A stretch of DNA of 63,674 nt, the filler included. It is 7 parts of 7 records of this genome, joined end to end, with 100 filler letters (N's around TTAATTAATTAA, not from the genome) between each part and the next. Parts side by side here need not be neighbours in the genome. Positions count along the whole stretch, not along the records: positions 9,476 to 37,669 come from SRR20825010_584; 6 more parts are not named here. One strand, given 5' to 3'. The position numbers and the translations under genes are program-made. The notes below the pieces were generated by a model, which was not told where the DNA came from, ran no database searches, and saw nothing but the letters and a program-made list of their open reading frames with translations. Below, one piece after another: positions 26,629 to 33,116 of the stretch (within the stretch, counting starts at the first letter, position 1; each line of letters starts with the position of its first letter).

Positions 26629-28053
26629 TTATTTCTCGGGTAACGCATTCAGTATTTCTGAGAAATGCTTATTGACATCGAACTTTTCTCCCCTGTTCGT
26701 CCAGCCAAACCGTATCACAACGGCATCTTTCGAGGGAACAATCGCAATATGTTGCCCCGCATACCCTGCGGCCATAAACAGGTCCTTGGGTGCATCAACT
26801 AACATACGGTCCTCTTCATTATCCAGGCTGCCACGATTATGCCAAAACTGTGCGCCATACATACCTTTTGGAGCCAGCGGTGTAACTGATCGCGTATAAG
26901 CCACCCACTCTCTAGACAAGACCTGCTTGTCACCAACCATGCCTTCGTTCAAAAATAATAGACCAAAACGTGCCCAATCCTGGGCTGTGGCATAAAAGTA
27001 TGAACTACCAACATGCGAACCGGACACATCCGGCTCGAACACAGCACTTGTCATGCCCACTGGCTTAAAGAAATGATCCCAGGCATAGGTGTGTACGTCT
27101 TGCAGAGTGCCCCCTACTGCATCAAACAGGATATGAGACAATATGTTTGTCGTTCCCGATGAATAATACCACTTTGTATCAGGCGCTGTTTCAGCAGGCT
27201 TATTCGCTGCGTATTTCGCCATATATCCTTCACGAAACAACATGTTCGTGCTGTCGTTCCCTGGAATATAGGGCTCTGTAAACTCAAGCCCACTTGTCAT
27301 ATTCAGCAAACTACGAAGCGTAATTTGACCGCGTGCATCACCTTCTGCAGACCACTCTGAAACCGGTGCCGCTTCGTCTAGCGCAAGCTTATTCCTGGTT
27401 ACCATTGTTCCAATCAGCGCACTGGCAACACTTTTGCTGGCTGACCACGCTAAAAACCGGCTTTCTTGATTAAAGCCTTCAGCATATTTCTCTGCAACAA
27501 TCTTCCCCTGGTAGACAACGAGGACAGCCCGTGTATCAACGGTCTGATGTTCAGAAGCATCAACAAAAGCCGCATCTACAGCAGCATCAAGTTTTTTCCA
27601 GTCAACGCCTCTACGGTTCCTGTCCAAAGACACTTCATCGCCTAAAGGCCACTCCTGCGCACGTCGGGGCCTAAAATTATCAGCGATTTCTTTTGCTTGC
27701 TCAAGCAGTTGGTCCGGGGTGCTGTTATCCAACATAAGTGTGCACCCCACCCCGGGGCGGTACAGGGCAGATCGCTTTACATCGCCCGCAATTGCCGTGG
27801 CTATCTTGGTGTTCTGATCAAAGCCAAACTCAACATCCTTTAACAAGGGATATGCAATGGGCCTCAGATCACGTTGAACCACATTTTCAGGGGTACGGTT
27901 TTGCAGGAACACACCTGAACAGGCCAGTTTCGCACCCGCACCCGCCGCCATTTCCTTAGTAATCGTTGCCATGTCCTGGTGCTCGTTTGCCTGAGCTTGC
28001 AAAGATATGGTTCCAACAGCGGTACATACCGCGAGATACAGATACGATTTCAT
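26629..28053 (-). CDS. Secreted serine hydrolase (beta-lactamase fold, NylB-like)
   Basis: Signal peptide (AQA), SxxK in WSASKS, MTSGL, YSSG and ARFG. Confidence 0.88.
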   Translation of the reverse strand: MKSYLYLAVCTAVGTISLQAQANEHQDMATITKEMAAGAGAKLACSGVFLQNRTPENVVQRDLRPIAYPLLKDVEFGFDQNTKIATAIAGDVKRSALYRPGVGCTLMLDNSTPDQLLEQAKEIADNFRPRRAQEWPLGDEVSLDRNRRGVDWKKLDAAVDAAFVDASEHQTVDTRAVLVVYQGKIVAEKYAEGFNQESRFLAWSASKSVASALIGTMVTRNKLALDEAAPVSEWSAEGDARGQITLRSLLNMTSGLEFTEPYIPGNDSTNMLFREGYMAKYAANKPAETAPDTKWYYSSGTTNILSHILFDAVGGTLQDVHTYAWDHFFKPVGMTSAVFEPDVSGSHVGSSYFYATAQDWARFGLLFLNEGMVGDKQVLSREWVAYTRSVTPLAPKGMYGAQFWHNRGSLDNEEDRMLVDAPKDLFMAAGYAGQHIAIVPSKDAVVIRFGWTNRGEKFDVNKHFSEILNALPEK

Positions 28054-29126
28054 TATTTAATCCTCTCAAGTAAGGCTTCTAAATCCCGCACAAACCATTC
28101 TGGACGCATGGGATGGGCCGCATGAGGGGTGTTTGGATAGTCCACAAGTGTGATCAGGTCGGGGTGCATATCACGCAGTTTTTCAAAGGACCCCGTCGCG
28201 TCAAACAGGTCCCCTGTTGGGTCAATAATGACCATCGGAACTGACAGATTACGGTATGTGATATAAGGATGAACACGGCGCCAGGATTGGTGCAGCAAGG
28301 GAAGCCTATGGGTTAGGCCGGGATTAATTGCCGCCTCACCAAAGGCATCGAACATTTTGGCATCATCATGATGCATGCCAAACGTACCGTCTTTTTTTTC
28401 AACCACAAAGGAATGAAGAGCAACCATTGATAATTTGGGAAATTCACCACCCCATCCCGGAACATATAAGTTCGCCATAAACTTTATTCCTGCAAAACGG
28501 TCTTGAAACACTGGCATTTGCATCGCAGGCATATGCTCCAACATGGCTTTCATCTGCTCGTACATAATTTCTGTCCGGAGCTGCACAGCATCCGCGCCAC
28601 CATCTTCCAGAACGATACCGAGCACGCGCTCTGGATAGTTTTCATAAAAGGTGGTCGTCACACCTCCCCCCAGAGAAAGGCCGCCAATAACCGCTTTTTC
28701 AATGCCAAGTTTATCCATCATCGCGGCAATATCATCGGCAATATGCGCGAGGGAAAACTCATAGTTGTCAACTTGAGTGTGACCGTGGCCGCGATATGAA
28801 ATGGAATAGACATGATAACCGGCTTCAACAAGCTGGTCAGCGACATTCACCAACTCAAATCCTGTGCTACTGTATCCATGTGACCAAATAAGCGGCACAC
28901 CGCTATCGTCTCCCCACTCCAGATAATGCATTTTGATGCCATTGACCTCAATGAAACGCCCATGCTCTCTATCAATATTCAAATACTGTTCATATGCTGC
29001 AGCTACACGAGCGCGGTTCTCTGAGGTATCTGGCAAAATATCTTGTGGTGAGTTTGCTTGCGCACCAATGGCAAACAAGCTCAAGGCCAATGTTATAATT
29101 GGGTGAAAAAGACAGTATTTCATCAT
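28053..29126 (-). CDS. Secreted alpha/beta hydrolase
   Basis: Signal peptide (AQA), HGYS oxyanion motif, GLSLG nucleophile elbow and C-terminal His (TPHAAH). Confidence 0.88.
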   Translation of the reverse strand: MMKYCLFHPIITLALSLFAIGAQANSPQDILPDTSENRARVAAAYEQYLNIDREHGRFIEVNGIKMHYLEWGDDSGVPLIWSHGYSSTGFELVNVADQLVEAGYHVYSISYRGHGHTQVDNYEFSLAHIADDIAAMMDKLGIEKAVIGGLSLGGGVTTTFYENYPERVLGIVLEDGGADAVQLRTEIMYEQMKAMLEHMPAMQMPVFQDRFAGIKFMANLYVPGWGGEFPKLSMVALHSFVVEKKDGTFGMHHDDAKMFDAFGEAAINPGLTHRLPLLHQSWRRVHPYITYRNLSVPMVIIDPTGDLFDATGSFEKLRDMHPDLITLVDYPNTPHAAHPMRPEWFVRDLEALLERIK

Positions 29127-29269: not shown

Positions 29270-31918
29270 TTAGAAATCATATGCGAGATTAAGGCCAATC
29301 GTACGCGGACGATTTGTACTCGCTGCCTCAAAAAACGGACCTTGACGGTCGATGCCGTACAGTACCTTTTCGTCAAATAAGTTGTTTGCAAACAAAGAGA
29401 TACTATACCCATCGACACTGCGCAGCCCTATACGGGCATCGACGAGACCATAAGATGGCAGAGCAACATCAAGATCCAGGTTAAAGTCATTCAATCGCTC
29501 GCCAACATATTTGTATGTCACGATACTATATAGCGACAATTCATCGTTCAGCGGCCGAGCCCAATCAGCTGTAATCGCAAAACTTTCCTTCGCTGAACCA
29601 GGAAGGCGATCACCATTTTTACCTGACACACCACCCGGCACATCTTCTTTCAGTTTAGGGTTGCTGAGCGCACCATTGAAAGAAAGGTTGAGAGCTTCGC
29701 TGGCTTGGAACACCATGCTGAATTCAAGGCCTGTCACCTGCGCTTTACCAACGTTTTGTGTCGTTCTGCCAAAGGTAATCGGGTCCTGAACAGTTAGCTG
29801 GATGTCTGTATAGTCAATCAAATAAGCTGAAAGGTTGGCGATCAAACGACCATTCAACCATGTTGATTTGATACCTAACTCATAGTTCCAGAGAGTATCG
29901 GAATCAAAAGTGGAAAATTCAGATATTGCTGTTGGCAAATTGAAGCCGCCCCGACGATACCCTGAGGTGGCCGTAGCATAGGCAAATACATCGTCGTTCA
30001 ACTGATGCTCTAGCGAAAACTTGAAGGTGTTAACATTTTCACTGGTATCAAAAGGAAGTCCGACAAGGGCACCTGCTCCGTTAAACGCATTAAAGATACC
30101 ATCCGCTTTGATGCCCAGCCTGTCAAATTCAACATGAGAGCGCCGATATCCAACCGTGAACTTGGTTGCGGCTGTAAAGTTCAGGCCCAGTTCACCGTAC
30201 ACCGCTTGTTCTTCACCATTCATCGCATCGATAGAGTCAAGGGCCACATCTCCGTCGGTGAACGGTATTAGACCAAACAGTATCTGATCAGGTCCTTTAT
30301 AAATATTGAACTGCTTAATGGCTGTTTCTTCATCCTCATAATAAAGGCCGAATATCCAATCAAAAAAGCCATCGCTGGAAGACACAAAGCGTAACTCGAG
30401 GATATCCGTTTCTGTATCCTGAGAAGGGTTGCCATCGGCTGGAATATCACAGGCACAGCCACTCCTAAAGCCAACGAACTCTCTCTGATCAAACGTAAAG
30501 TCGAACTTCAGCTTATTGCGTGTCGCCAAAAATGTTGTCGTAAAACCCTCAAAATCTTTTTCGAGTTTTAGATTGAAAAACTCATACGTATTGTCGCGTT
30601 CCTCAACTACACCACCAATTGCAGTACGCGCATTCAGATCAAAGGGAACATCAGGCCCTTCGTCACCTGCTATGTTCAAATCTCCAGGGGTGCGAGTTGT
30701 GGTGACAGAGTTAGGCCCTGCATTCTGGCTCTGATAGAGATAGGTGAAATCAGCGCTGAAGGTGTCTGTTACGTCCCAGTGTGCCGCAAGTCTGCCACCC
30801 CATGTTTTTTCTTCGTTAATATCGTCAATGCCCAACTCCACATTATCGATGAAGCCTGCGTTGTCGTAATAATAGCCTGTCATGCGGACAGCCAGGTTCT
30901 CCGCAACAGGTATATTCAAATATCCATGCCCGCCATAATTGGAGCCGCCGTCCGCAGTATCAGAAAGATAAGTATTGAGACCGCCGGCAAAAGCCTCAGT
31001 GTCGGGCTTATTGGAAATATAACGCACTATGCCGCCCATGGCACTACGGCCAAAAAGTGTGCCCTGCGGGCCTTTCAACACCTCCACACGGCTCACATCA
31101 ACCAGACGGATATCCGCTGCTGTCGAGAAGCTGGTTGTAGTGAGGGCAAAGTCATCAAAATATGTGGCTACCGACGAACTGCCTGACTCTTGCGTGGAAG
31201 TATTGATATTACGGATGATAATTCTGTTTGAACCGCCACCTTCGTCATTAGCTGTAACGCCGGGCACAGTATCGATAAACTGGCCAATACTATTATAGCC
31301 TTTTTCTTCAAGGCTTTTGCCGCCAAACGCACTAATGCTCAACGCTGTTGACTGCACGCTCGATTCTCGACGAGTAGCTGTCACCACAATCTCGTCCAGG
31401 TCAAAGGCGCTACTATTCGTAGCATTGTCCTGCGCATGCGCACCCCCTGCACCAAACAGGAAACTGGCAACACTTGCCAGTAAGCTCTTTTTCAGCTTGC
31501 TATTATTCATTGTGTTTTCCTCCCGGCCCTGCTCTGTGGCCTGACCTCGCCCTTTGGCTTCATTGAACGAGATCACAATGACCCCGTTTTCGGTTAGGCC
31601 GCCGGCAAGGGTTGTATCCCTGAGCATTATCGAGAGTGCTTCGGTCAACGTGTACGTGCCACTTAGTGCCTGAGAGCGTTCAGTGGCTGTATCACCCGAA
31701 GGAATAATTAATGATTTCCCCGTTTCTCGCGCCAAGGCAAAGAGAGCAACATCAATTCGGGAGGAAGGTATATCGAGAGTATAGTGTTTTAGTGCTGGAC
31801 CATCAGCGATTGCCGCGACGGCATTTCCACAGCTTAATCCAACGAAGATTAAAACAAACCCAATATACCTGCGTAGTCCACCCCATTTATCCCTCGGCCG
31901 TTGTTTCAAATCCGTCAT
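29270..31918 (-). CDS. TonB-dependent transducer (STN signalling domain, plug, barrel) with an internal second signal peptide
   Basis: Signal peptide, STN-like domain (YTLDIPSSRIDVAL...LSGTYTLTEAL), TonB box LDEIVVTA, plug RVEVLKGPQGTLFG, C-terminal Phe. Confidence 0.93.
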   Translation of the reverse strand: MTDLKQRPRDKWGGLRRYIGFVLIFVGLSCGNAVAAIADGPALKHYTLDIPSSRIDVALFALARETGKSLIIPSGDTATERSQALSGTYTLTEALSIMLRDTTLAGGLTENGVIVISFNEAKGRGQATEQGREENTMNNSKLKKSLLASVASFLFGAGGAHAQDNATNSSAFDLDEIVVTATRRESSVQSTALSISAFGGKSLEEKGYNSIGQFIDTVPGVTANDEGGGSNRIIIRNINTSTQESGSSSVATYFDDFALTTTSFSTAADIRLVDVSRVEVLKGPQGTLFGRSAMGGIVRYISNKPDTEAFAGGLNTYLSDTADGGSNYGGHGYLNIPVAENLAVRMTGYYYDNAGFIDNVELGIDDINEEKTWGGRLAAHWDVTDTFSADFTYLYQSQNAGPNSVTTTRTPGDLNIAGDEGPDVPFDLNARTAIGGVVEERDNTYEFFNLKLEKDFEGFTTTFLATRNKLKFDFTFDQREFVGFRSGCACDIPADGNPSQDTETDILELRFVSSSDGFFDWIFGLYYEDEETAIKQFNIYKGPDQILFGLIPFTDGDVALDSIDAMNGEEQAVYGELGLNFTAATKFTVGYRRSHVEFDRLGIKADGIFNAFNGAGALVGLPFDTSENVNTFKFSLEHQLNDDVFAYATATSGYRRGGFNLPTAISEFSTFDSDTLWNYELGIKSTWLNGRLIANLSAYLIDYTDIQLTVQDPITFGRTTQNVGKAQVTGLEFSMVFQASEALNLSFNGALSNPKLKEDVPGGVSGKNGDRLPGSAKESFAITADWARPLNDELSLYSIVTYKYVGERLNDFNLDLDVALPSYGLVDARIGLRSVDGYSISLFANNLFDEKVLYGIDRQGPFFEAASTNRPRTIGLNLAYDF

Positions 31919-31928
31919 CTCTAACGAC

Positions 31929-31972
31929 CTATATAATGAGAGCAGGGTGGGTGAAAAAACCGGACATATTTT
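31929..31972 (-). promoter_or_regulatory. Putative ECF-sigma promoter of the receptor
   Basis: AAAATATGTCCGGTTT...ACCC...GCTCTCATTATATAG, nearly identical to the motif at 33714-33756. Confidence 0.72.
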
Positions 31973-32015
31973 ATATTTTTTCTGTCATTAAGGTCTCTGG
32001 GCTACTTTTTTCAAT

Positions 32016-33116
32016 CTAACTCGCAGTCAAATGCACAAGGTTGGGTTCTATACGATTTGCCTTGATATTTAAGGCAGCTTCAACACCCTCCAGCATCAAA
32101 TCCACATCGCCAATTTGAAGAATTCCTGTAATTTTCTTATCCTTCAGGGCGTCATCCATCACCTTGATCTTTACCGTCGTATAGCGCGCCACTTCGTCAA
32201 TGACAGACTGCAGGTCTTCATCGTAGAAAACCAACTGACCTGTAGTCCACGAAAGGCGTTTAGCCAGATCACGCTCAGAAACAGATTGTTGGACATTGGT
32301 TTCGGTCCTGCCTATGTCGGCAGCCCCGCCTTTACTTACCATGATAGGTGTTTCTTGATATACCAAGGCATCCATTACATTGTTTTGAGCCATGCTTTTG
32401 TCTAACCGCCGGGCAAGTGCAACTCGGCCGTCAGTAACAGTCACACTTACCTTGTGTTCAGCCACACGTACGGCAAAGCGTGTTCCCACTGCACGAATAA
32501 CACCATCCGCTGCGTAGACCAGAAATGGCCTCTCCTTATCATGAGCAACATCAAAGATTGCCTCACCAGCAATCAAACGAACAACGCGTTCTTCCCCGGA
32601 ATATGACTGCTCAATAATACTATCGGTGTTCAGATGAACCTGTGACCCATCAACCAAATCAACGATCCGCGTCTCACCAACAGCTGTGGCATAATAATTT
32701 TCCACATCTGCAGATGGAGATGACAAAAAGATACTCGCTGAAACAACGCCGATGAGCAGGACAGCCACTGCAAAAGCCGTTACCTTAAGGCGCGCCAAAG
32801 CCGGACCGAATAGGCCCAGCGGCATCTGACCATTCGCACGCCCCTCCTCCTGTCCTTCCCCTGCCATAAGCGGCGCAAGCCTGCTTAAAGGTTCATTAAG
32901 GCCATACCAAAGGTCCGCCGCCTGCTGAATTGAATCCTTGTTCTTCGGATCTTCCGCCAACCAGTCCGTAAAATCTGCACGTTCTTCTGCTGTTAAGTCG
33001 CCGCGGTCCAACTTGGCGAGCCAATCCGCCGCCTGTAACTTTTGTTTCTCTTCTTGCCGCAAGGGCACGATGCTTGGATCATCATTCATTTCTGTCGCCT
33101 TTACCATTTCTGGCAT
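32016..33116 (-). CDS. FecR-family anti-sigma factor
   Basis: AADWLAKL N-terminal domain, one TM, FecR motifs TAVGE, LVDGS.VHLNT, GEAIFDV and AVGTRF. The start may be ATG 33089. Confidence 0.92.
   Translation of the reverse strand: MPEMVKATEMNDDPSIVPLRQEEKQKLQAADWLAKLDRGDLTAEERADFTDWLAEDPKNKDSIQQAADLWYGLNEPLSRLAPLMAGEGQEEGRANGQMPLGLFGPALARLKVTAFAVAVLLIGVVSASIFLSSPSADVENYYATAVGETRIVDLVDGSQVHLNTDSIIEQSYSGEERVVRLIAGEAIFDVAHDKERPFLVYAADGVIRAVGTRFAVRVAEHKVSVTVTDGRVALARRLDKSMAQNNVMDALVYQETPIMVSKGGAADIGRTETNVQQSVSERDLAKRLSWTTGQLVFYDEDLQSVIDEVARYTTVKIKVMDDALKDKKITGILQIGDVDLMLEGVEAALNIKANRIEPNLVHLTAS

Follow-up and report, generated by a model that had tools for sequence, protein, structure and literature searches.

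The TonB-dependent transducers described so far, such as FecA of Escherichia coli (with FecR and FecI), FpvA and FoxA of Pseudomonas aeruginosa and PupB of Pseudomonas capeferrum (with PupR), have an N-terminal STN fold that is followed by a TonB box, a plug and a barrel. The gene considered here is located on the minus strand of the window, by which we mean the whole stretch of 63,674 nucleotides (filler included) that was analysed, and it encodes an 882-amino-acid (aa) protein with the same succession of parts. Like the described transducers, it is preceded directly and on the same strand by genes for an extracytoplasmic function (ECF) sigma factor and a FecR-type regulator. The difference lies between the STN domain and the TonB box. 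Whereas this place holds only a short unstructured linker in the described transducers, here it is occupied by a Shine-Dalgarno (SD) sequence, an in-frame start codon (Met137) and a 26-residue signal peptide of the cleavable type. All the elements of this open reading frame (ORF) that the original prediction had listed are present where it had placed them (table 1). In the full-text literature, with subscription journals largely outside the search, no description of a nested start or of a second signal peptide in a TonB-dependent receptor was found, which agrees with the statement of the original prediction that no account of this architecture was known.

In transducers of this kind the STN domain binds the periplasmic domain of the regulator, a contact for which the structure of the PupB-PupR pair is solved, and binding of a ligand induces the regulon. 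In the current model for E. coli, TonB pulls on FecA and the C-terminal fragment of FecR is set free (PMC12036975, accessible text). For FoxA of P. aeruginosa, the accessible text of PMC11637429 reports two bands in a prc mutant, of about 84-85 and 73-74 kDa, which differ by about the size of the signalling domain; cleavage of this domain by periplasmic proteolysis is proposed there, with CtpA as the proposed protease. According to the same text, overproduced signalling domains of several Pseudomonas transducers block signalling by protecting or stabilising the anti-sigma factor. The premise of the original prediction that the STN domain of a transducer stays covalently attached to the plug needs updating in view of the cleavage proposed for FoxA. 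The gene in the window resembles FoxA (as presented in the accessible text of PMC11637429) in that there would be two receptor forms differing by the signalling domain, and in that the dosage of this domain would matter for the anti-sigma factor. It differs from FoxA, whose short form is attributed to proteolysis and is seen in the prc mutant only, in that a nested start would give rise to the short form directly; the accessible text of that report describes neither an internal start nor an internal signal peptide for FoxA.

In-frame internal starts that give N-terminally truncated isoforms are known in bacteria from a Ribo-RET survey (bioRxiv 10.1101/520783, accessible text). What the gene studied here has in common with such genes is a second in-frame start with its own SD, conserved in relatives. 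Bacterial proteins with two isoforms include CheA (long and short forms), IF2 and ClpB. Unlike the internal start in other such genes, the start found here precedes its own Sec signal peptide, the two predicted isoforms would both be exported, each by a different leader, and the arrangement is conserved across a large receptor family.

From the observed anatomy of the gene and its conservation in relatives we infer that both products are made, and we consider it probable that this one gene gives two receptors by alternative translation initiation. Initiation at the first ATG, with its weak SD, would provide few molecules of a signalling receptor composed of the first signal peptide (SP1), the STN domain, the linker, the TonB box, the plug and the barrel, and the STN domain of this long form would act on the FecR-type regulator encoded just upstream. 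Initiation at the strong GGGAGG/ATG of Met137 would provide an ordinary receptor precursor, which would be led through Sec by the second signal peptide (SP2) and cut at AHA-Q, resulting in a transport-competent receptor without signalling domain. Judged by the SD strengths in the family, the short form is predicted to be more abundant than the long form. In the long form SP1 would engage Sec, and SP2 would cross the translocon as a passenger in the linker. The TonB-pull model of E. coli needs the STN domain on a receptor that bears the TonB box, and the long form would therefore satisfy it. The benefit may be that induction raises the transport capacity without a matching rise in the dosage of STN. 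The use of both starts is the simplest account, because the SD, the start codon and the leader are conserved inside a longer frame that is itself conserved.

The frame is not an assembly slip, since contigs of several runs and the nearest genome agree on it. Positions 31000-32100 are identical in the contigs of four DNA runs from two studies, with zero differences, stops or indels (the four runs may include the source of the window itself), and the same first 250 residues are encoded in the nearest genome, G001. A stop codon between the STN and receptor parts, which the original prediction had named as fatal to it, is absent from the contigs of all four runs.

SP2 has the features of a signal peptide, namely a positive n-region (KLKK), a hydrophobic core (SLLASVASFLFGAGG) and a small-x-small cleavage site (AHA-Q), and its status was judged by three proxies: family models, alignment with free-standing receptors and core hydrophobicity. 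First, full-length receptor models begin to match near residue 143 of the long ORF, TIGR01779 from its position 2, the FoxA model from 10 and the CfrA model from 16. Second, the Met137 product matches plain TonB-dependent receptors, such as the 747-aa P0033 and the 746-aa P0041, from the signal peptide to the C-terminal Phe; its residues 5-746 align with residues 2-747 of the free-standing P0033 at 59% identity. Unlike in the plain receptors, the complete receptor gene with its own leader here sits in frame behind an STN module. Third, the SP2 core of 50 homologs has a median Kyte-Doolittle hydrophobicity of 2.15, compared with 2.20 in the N-terminal leaders of 37 plain homologs (p=0.62). In the AlphaFold2 model the predicted local distance difference test score (pLDDT) is below 50 over SP2, which shows neither fold nor contact, as is expected of a leader.

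SP1 is more hydrophobic than SP2 (median 2.70, n=42 homologs, versus 2.15; p=4e-10) and also exceeds the leaders of plain receptors (2.20), and it would be cut at AVA-A or AIA-D. Its higher hydrophobicity would fit co-translational targeting of the long form by the signal recognition particle (SRP), and with such targeting SP1 could already be engaged with the translocon by the time SP2 appears. The moderate hydrophobicity of SP2 together with the higher one of SP1 would also fit the passage of SP2 as a passenger.

The conservation of the internal start was followed in proteins and in DNA. A word-based homolog search with residues 1-400 gave 120 proteins, the window's own included, and these were classified by a profile based on an alignment of twelve STN plus SP2 segments (alignment A1). 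According to this profile, 50 proteins have both STN and SP2, 20 have STN only, one has the leader part only, and 49 have neither, being receptors that are either plain or equipped with a different N-terminal domain. Inspection by eye revealed a divergent hydrophobic segment behind a Met in four of the 20 STN-only proteins (P0024, P0025, P0026 and P0040, named in the source as Parahaliea, Chromatocurvus, Pseudohaliea and NOR5-3). An internal signal peptide is found in about 54 of the 70 STN-bearing homologs, and the remaining 16 represent the classic form. Invariant residues in A1 are the SD-forming Glu, the n-region Lys, the core Gly and the Gln that follows the cleavage site; Leu-Leu reaches 90% or more in SP2, and there is no conserved column in the SP1 part.

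For the DNA of relatives, 41 genomes related to G001 and one-genome-per-species contigs were used. Profile hits that run from STN to SP2 form, after removal of copies with the same 180 nt, a set of 33 distinct loci. The one-per-species search, made with a four-row subset of the alignment (A2), yielded 18 loci, six of which duplicate loci already collected; all 18 are alphaproteobacterial, with Kordiimonas, Maricaulaceae, Parvularculaceae, Amphiplicatus, Robiginitomaculum, Hyphococcus and Hyphomonadaceae as hosts. An SD and an in-frame start codon are present in 33 of 33 loci; a conserved internal SD, start and signal peptide in homologs is what the original prediction had proposed to look for. 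The codon, which lies 7-16 residues before the hydrophobic core, is ATG in 15 loci and GTG in 18. Where Val occupies the position of the internal start its codon is always GTG (18/18), whereas GTG accounts for 375 of 1384 Val codons (27%) elsewhere in the same ORFs.

The strength of the SD points in the same direction. Over the 33 loci the anti-SD duplex at the internal start has a median of -10.3 kcal/mol and is -6.4 kcal/mol at its weakest, compared with a median of -2.2 kcal/mol for control in-frame ATG and GTG codons (n=483), 3.3% of which reach -6.4 and 0.2% reach -10. For the first start the median in the family is -4.85 kcal/mol, even when the best candidate is taken, and in the window's gene the first ATG has -3.2 kcal/mol versus -10.3 kcal/mol at the internal ATG; the weaker SD at the first ATG had been predicted. 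A simple SD-core test, performed on 13 loci chosen by eye, was positive for 13 of 13 internal starts and for 13 of 231 control codons. Moreover, the region from -4 to +37 around the internal start is less structured than around other codons in 32 of the 33 loci (mean z 1.17), and codons 2-8 behind the start are A/T-rich (0.63 versus 0.48), again in 32 of 33.

Several points weigh against alternative initiation. The A/T richness behind the start arises partly because of Lys and Asn codons, and the 33 loci amount to fewer independent cases because several are orthologs of 78-94% identity. Three of the 50 profile-positive homologs have neither Met nor Val inside the interval searched; one of them, P0071, has a Met just beyond it. 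P0020 and P0021 keep the hydrophobic segment and have no obvious start, so that the segment may have a significance other than initiation. SP2 is also conserved beyond what is expected of a generic signal peptide, which hints at an extra, unexplained constraint. Finally, two receptor sizes such as those of FoxA can also be read as proteolysis (PMC11637429, accessible text).

Some of the same observations speak for processing of a single precursor. According to this explanation, most of the product is the long precursor, which signal peptidase I or a periplasmic protease cuts at AHA-Q or close to it, so that the STN domain, free or membrane-associated, would act on FecR in trans and an STN-less receptor would be left behind. 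The AxA-Q site is conserved, with the Gln invariant in A1; SP2 is more conserved than SP1; SP2 is retained in P0020 and P0021; and signalling-domain cleavage is what the authors propose for the two bands of FoxA (PMC11637429, accessible text). Left unexplained by processing are the invariant ATG/GTG, the GTG-only Val codons and the strong SD. Sec topology is a further difficulty. In the accepted topology, a hydrophobic segment behind a translocated domain should be oriented N-out/C-in, and the AxA site would for this reason face the cytoplasm, beyond the reach of signal peptidase I; arrest of SP2 in the membrane is itself unexpected, because the hydrophobicity of SP2 does not exceed that of ordinary cleaved signal peptides. 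Release of the STN domain by cleavage at AHA-Q, which the original prediction had offered as its second option, would fit this topology poorly. Processing is on the whole an unlikely explanation, and it could coexist with internal initiation.

The Pfam match to STN is weak (E=0.01, 16 bits versus a cut-off of 28.4), positions 9-97 of the NCBIfam FecA model match the STN part with E 5.8e-7, and the AlphaFold2 model has a pLDDT of 88-96 across residues 45-118. The best Foldseek matches of this model are the signalling domains of PupB, FpvA, FoxA, PupA and FecA, which superpose over about 75 residues with a template modelling (TM) score of about 0.8 on the target and a root mean square deviation of 1.4-1.7 Å. 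The identity of the domain is weak by Pfam and firm by modelled structure.

In four close ortholog pairs of relatives the ratio of non-synonymous to synonymous divergence (dN/dS) is 0.07-0.16 in STN, 0.02-0.32 where STN joins SP2, and 0.02-0.06 in plug plus barrel; in two distant paralog pairs, where divergence is near-saturated, it is higher or undefined. All 27 SP2-type loci whose flank is long enough have a FecR homolog immediately upstream, and the stretch from STN to the receptor is stop-free in the relatives' full-span matches listed, with one exception (L037). Judged from these comparisons, the STN part is under purifying selection, and because of the low dN/dS, the intact frame and the upstream FecR the module is a working signalling part and not debris. 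No stand-alone STN protein of 74-238 aa that matches residues 1-136 at E<=0.001 was found among 128 candidates, in a search that requires shared 5-mers and that distant ones could escape. In the exception, L037 (G023:C92:18700-20700, minus strand), TGA replaces a conserved Gly codon within STN, while the SD, ATG, SP2 and receptor that follow remain intact and FecR is present upstream; this TGA reflects either an assembly error of a draft genome or a recent event in which the long form was lost and the short form kept.

The collinearity of the Met137 product with free-standing receptors makes it likely that an STN module was once fused upstream of a complete receptor gene. It could then be argued that the old SD, start and signal peptide are functionless relics and that only the long protein matters, all the more so as classic forms with STN and a linker occur among close homologs (16/70; for example P0006 and P0017, and the loci L002, L017, L023, L042, L043 and L045). 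A relic, however, would require neutral retention of the SD, start and signal-peptide features in 33 of 33 loci, which is implausible, and does not agree with the dN/dS at the junction. Paralogs with 30-40% identity from several alphaproteobacterial families have the same design, and a divergent form of it is present in Halieaceae. For this reason the fusion, the third option of the original prediction, stands as a likely event and fails as a recent one, and we regard a functionless relic as very unlikely. Judged from the alignments, the combination of SD, start and SP2 is a design of the family, more than chance and not a recent accident.

The last explanation to be weighed gives the junction a role other than initiation: GGGAGG would be an elongation pause or part of an RNA structure, the hydrophobic segment would be a linker of the long protein, for instance a helix that binds a partner, and no short protein would be made. 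The conservation of SP2 beyond generic signal peptides, a small covarying hairpin about 55 nt upstream of the internal SD, and four close ortholog pairs whose synonymous divergence in the barrel exceeds that in the STN part could all be taken in its favour. For a pause site, on the other hand, there is no need of an ATG or GTG at constant spacing or of an A/T-rich stretch without structure after it, the proposal that upstream codons mask the SD is unsupported, and the lack of fold or contact over SP2 in the model does not suggest a linker helix. We hold such a role to be highly improbable.

The hairpin has 9 base pairs (31566-31588, minus strand), is formed by the codons of the last STN strand (Asn-Gly-Val-Ile-Val-Ile-Ser) and corresponds to columns 81-103 of an alignment of 30 loci (A3). 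It is paired in 83% of cells compared with 69.6% in shuffles and 37-63% in slid controls, and seven of its nine pairs show changes on both sides. Its covariation score is 0.464 versus 0.253, and 0 of 500 shuffles reach 0.464; all of these figures can be raised by relatedness. The synonymous divergence is 0.50-0.87 in the STN part and 1.15-2.57 in plug plus barrel of the same genes (pairs L051/L053, L057/L055, L054/L056 and L064/L067), and hints at an extra nucleotide-level constraint or at gene conversion in the 5' part. It was considered as well whether the TTTTCCGGCGG (Phe-Ser-Gly-Gly) codons ahead of the internal SD mask it. Single-sequence folds were suggestive of such masking and a synonymous recoding test was not: the mean unpaired probability of the SD was 0.34 in native and 0.37 in recoded sequences, and the native value was the lower one in 17 of 30 loci (Wilcoxon p=0.21), and the masking helix was not returned by RNAalifold.

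Alternative initiation, the first option of the original prediction, with an abundant transport-only receptor and a rare signalling one, is thus the option favoured by the internal SD and start codon, by Val codons that are GTG only, by the weaker first SD, by the unstructured A/T-rich start and by the intact in-frame STN. A fuller version of it is plausible and, in our estimate, falls a little short of being probable. In this version the clade would hard-wire two isoforms on the same ECF-driven mRNA: a weak first start with an SRP-grade SP1 would provide few sensors matched to FecR, the strong nested start, with SP2 as an ordinary leader, would provide the bulk transporter, and the ratio would be fixed at translation; within the long form, SP2 may also be an element for recognition or cleavage by which the STN domain is set free.

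The region upstream of the receptor gene was also compared among relatives. A promoter-like pattern, GGGTTT..GTCTT, occurs between fecR and the receptor gene in 13 of 32 related loci (0.9 expected), and AGGCC[GA]G (as AAGGCCGGTG) occurs there in 21 of 32 (1.1 expected); in nine loci the two are exactly 7-8 nt apart (motif examples L003, L009, L055, L056 and L062). The window's gene has neither pattern and carries GGTTTTTT instead. In common with the paralog L031 it has GGTCGTT 5 nt before the first ATG; the leader of the long form could accordingly be very short or absent. A promoter of the ECF type within the STN part, one that would feed the short form only, was considered and set aside, as the motifs of relatives lie upstream of the first start; the STN part was not formally scanned. 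Before SP1, the relatives L033, L036, L058, L065 and L007 share a short motif of the type Leu-Ile-x-x-Pro-x-His-x-Gly, and in some of them the true first start is ambiguous (GTG, TTG or possibly CTG).

The operon consists of the ECF sigma factor, FecR and receptor genes on one strand, and the start of the long ORF lies 97 nt past the FecR-type gene; this first start is also kept in the homologs P0004 and P0005. The linker between STN and Met137 is rich in Glu, Arg and Gly, and it is its codons that spell GGGAGG. The segment DEIVVTA is taken to be the TonB box that is typical of the receptor family. The neighbours on the downstream side are two hydrolases (26629-29126) with leader-like N-termini, and no iron ATP-binding cassette (ABC) transporter is present there, unlike in the surroundings of described transducers, where an iron ABC system is found. 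The two hydrolases probably belong to the operon or regulon, judged from spacing alone. With such neighbours and no iron ABC transporter, the system may sense and import an organic substrate and not a siderophore.

Table 1. Features of the receptor locus, in positions of the window; residues are counted along the long ORF.
Feature	Position	Strand	Basis or remark
ECF sigma factor gene, 210 aa	33082..33714	(-)	Pfam Sigma70_r2, r4_2, Sigma70_ECF
FecR-type sigma regulator gene, 366 aa	32016..33116	(-)	Pfam DUF4880, FecR, FecR_C
Long ORF, 882 aa, SP1-STN-SP2-TonB box-plug-barrel, predicted signalling form	29270..31918	(-)	
First start with weak SD, and SP1 (MTDLKQRPRDKWGGLRRYIGFVLIFVGLSCGNAVA, followed by A), residues 1 to 35 or 38	31805..31918	(-)	sequence
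STN signalling domain, residues 45-118	31565..31786	(-)	AlphaFold2, Foldseek
Internal Shine-Dalgarno GGGAGG, read as Arg-Glu-Glu codons	31519..31524	(-)	8-nt spacer before ATG
Internal in-frame start ATG, Met137	31508..31510	(-)	sequence, aligned loci
SP2 (MNNSKLKKSLLASVASFLFGAGGAHA), residues 137-162, predicted cut AHA-Q before Gln163	31433..31510	(-)	
Nested short ORF, 746 aa, predicted transport-only plain TonB-dependent receptor precursor (P0002)	29270..31510	(-)	
Presumed TonB box DEIVVTA, residues 175-181	31376..31396	(-)	sequence
Plug domain, residues 188-297	31028..31357	(-)	Pfam PF07715, E 1e-17
Beta-barrel, residues 388-847	29378..30757	(-)	Pfam PF00593, E 1e-31
Alpha/beta hydrolase gene, downstream of the receptor	28053-29126	(-)	Pfam
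Beta-lactamase-fold serine hydrolase gene, downstream	26629-28053	(-)	Pfam

What would two receptors from one gene mean for cell-surface signalling, a textbook pathway across the envelope? The models now in use take it for granted that no transducer molecule is without its signalling domain. The question raised in 2024 of why an STN-less receptor form exists, and of how the dosage of the domain controls the anti-sigma factor, is one on which the present gene bears, and the nested start would offer a clean genetic means of separating sensing from transport, considering that long-only and short-only alleles could be obtained by silent or single-codon changes. For annotation, such genes hide a second complete coding sequence, and in metagenomic counts of receptors one ORF may represent two proteins. 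If the proposal is true, the nested start would answer by genetic means the problem for which proteolysis is the proposed solution in FoxA of Pseudomonas, and many marine proteobacteria would set the ratio between sensing and transporting receptors by translation.

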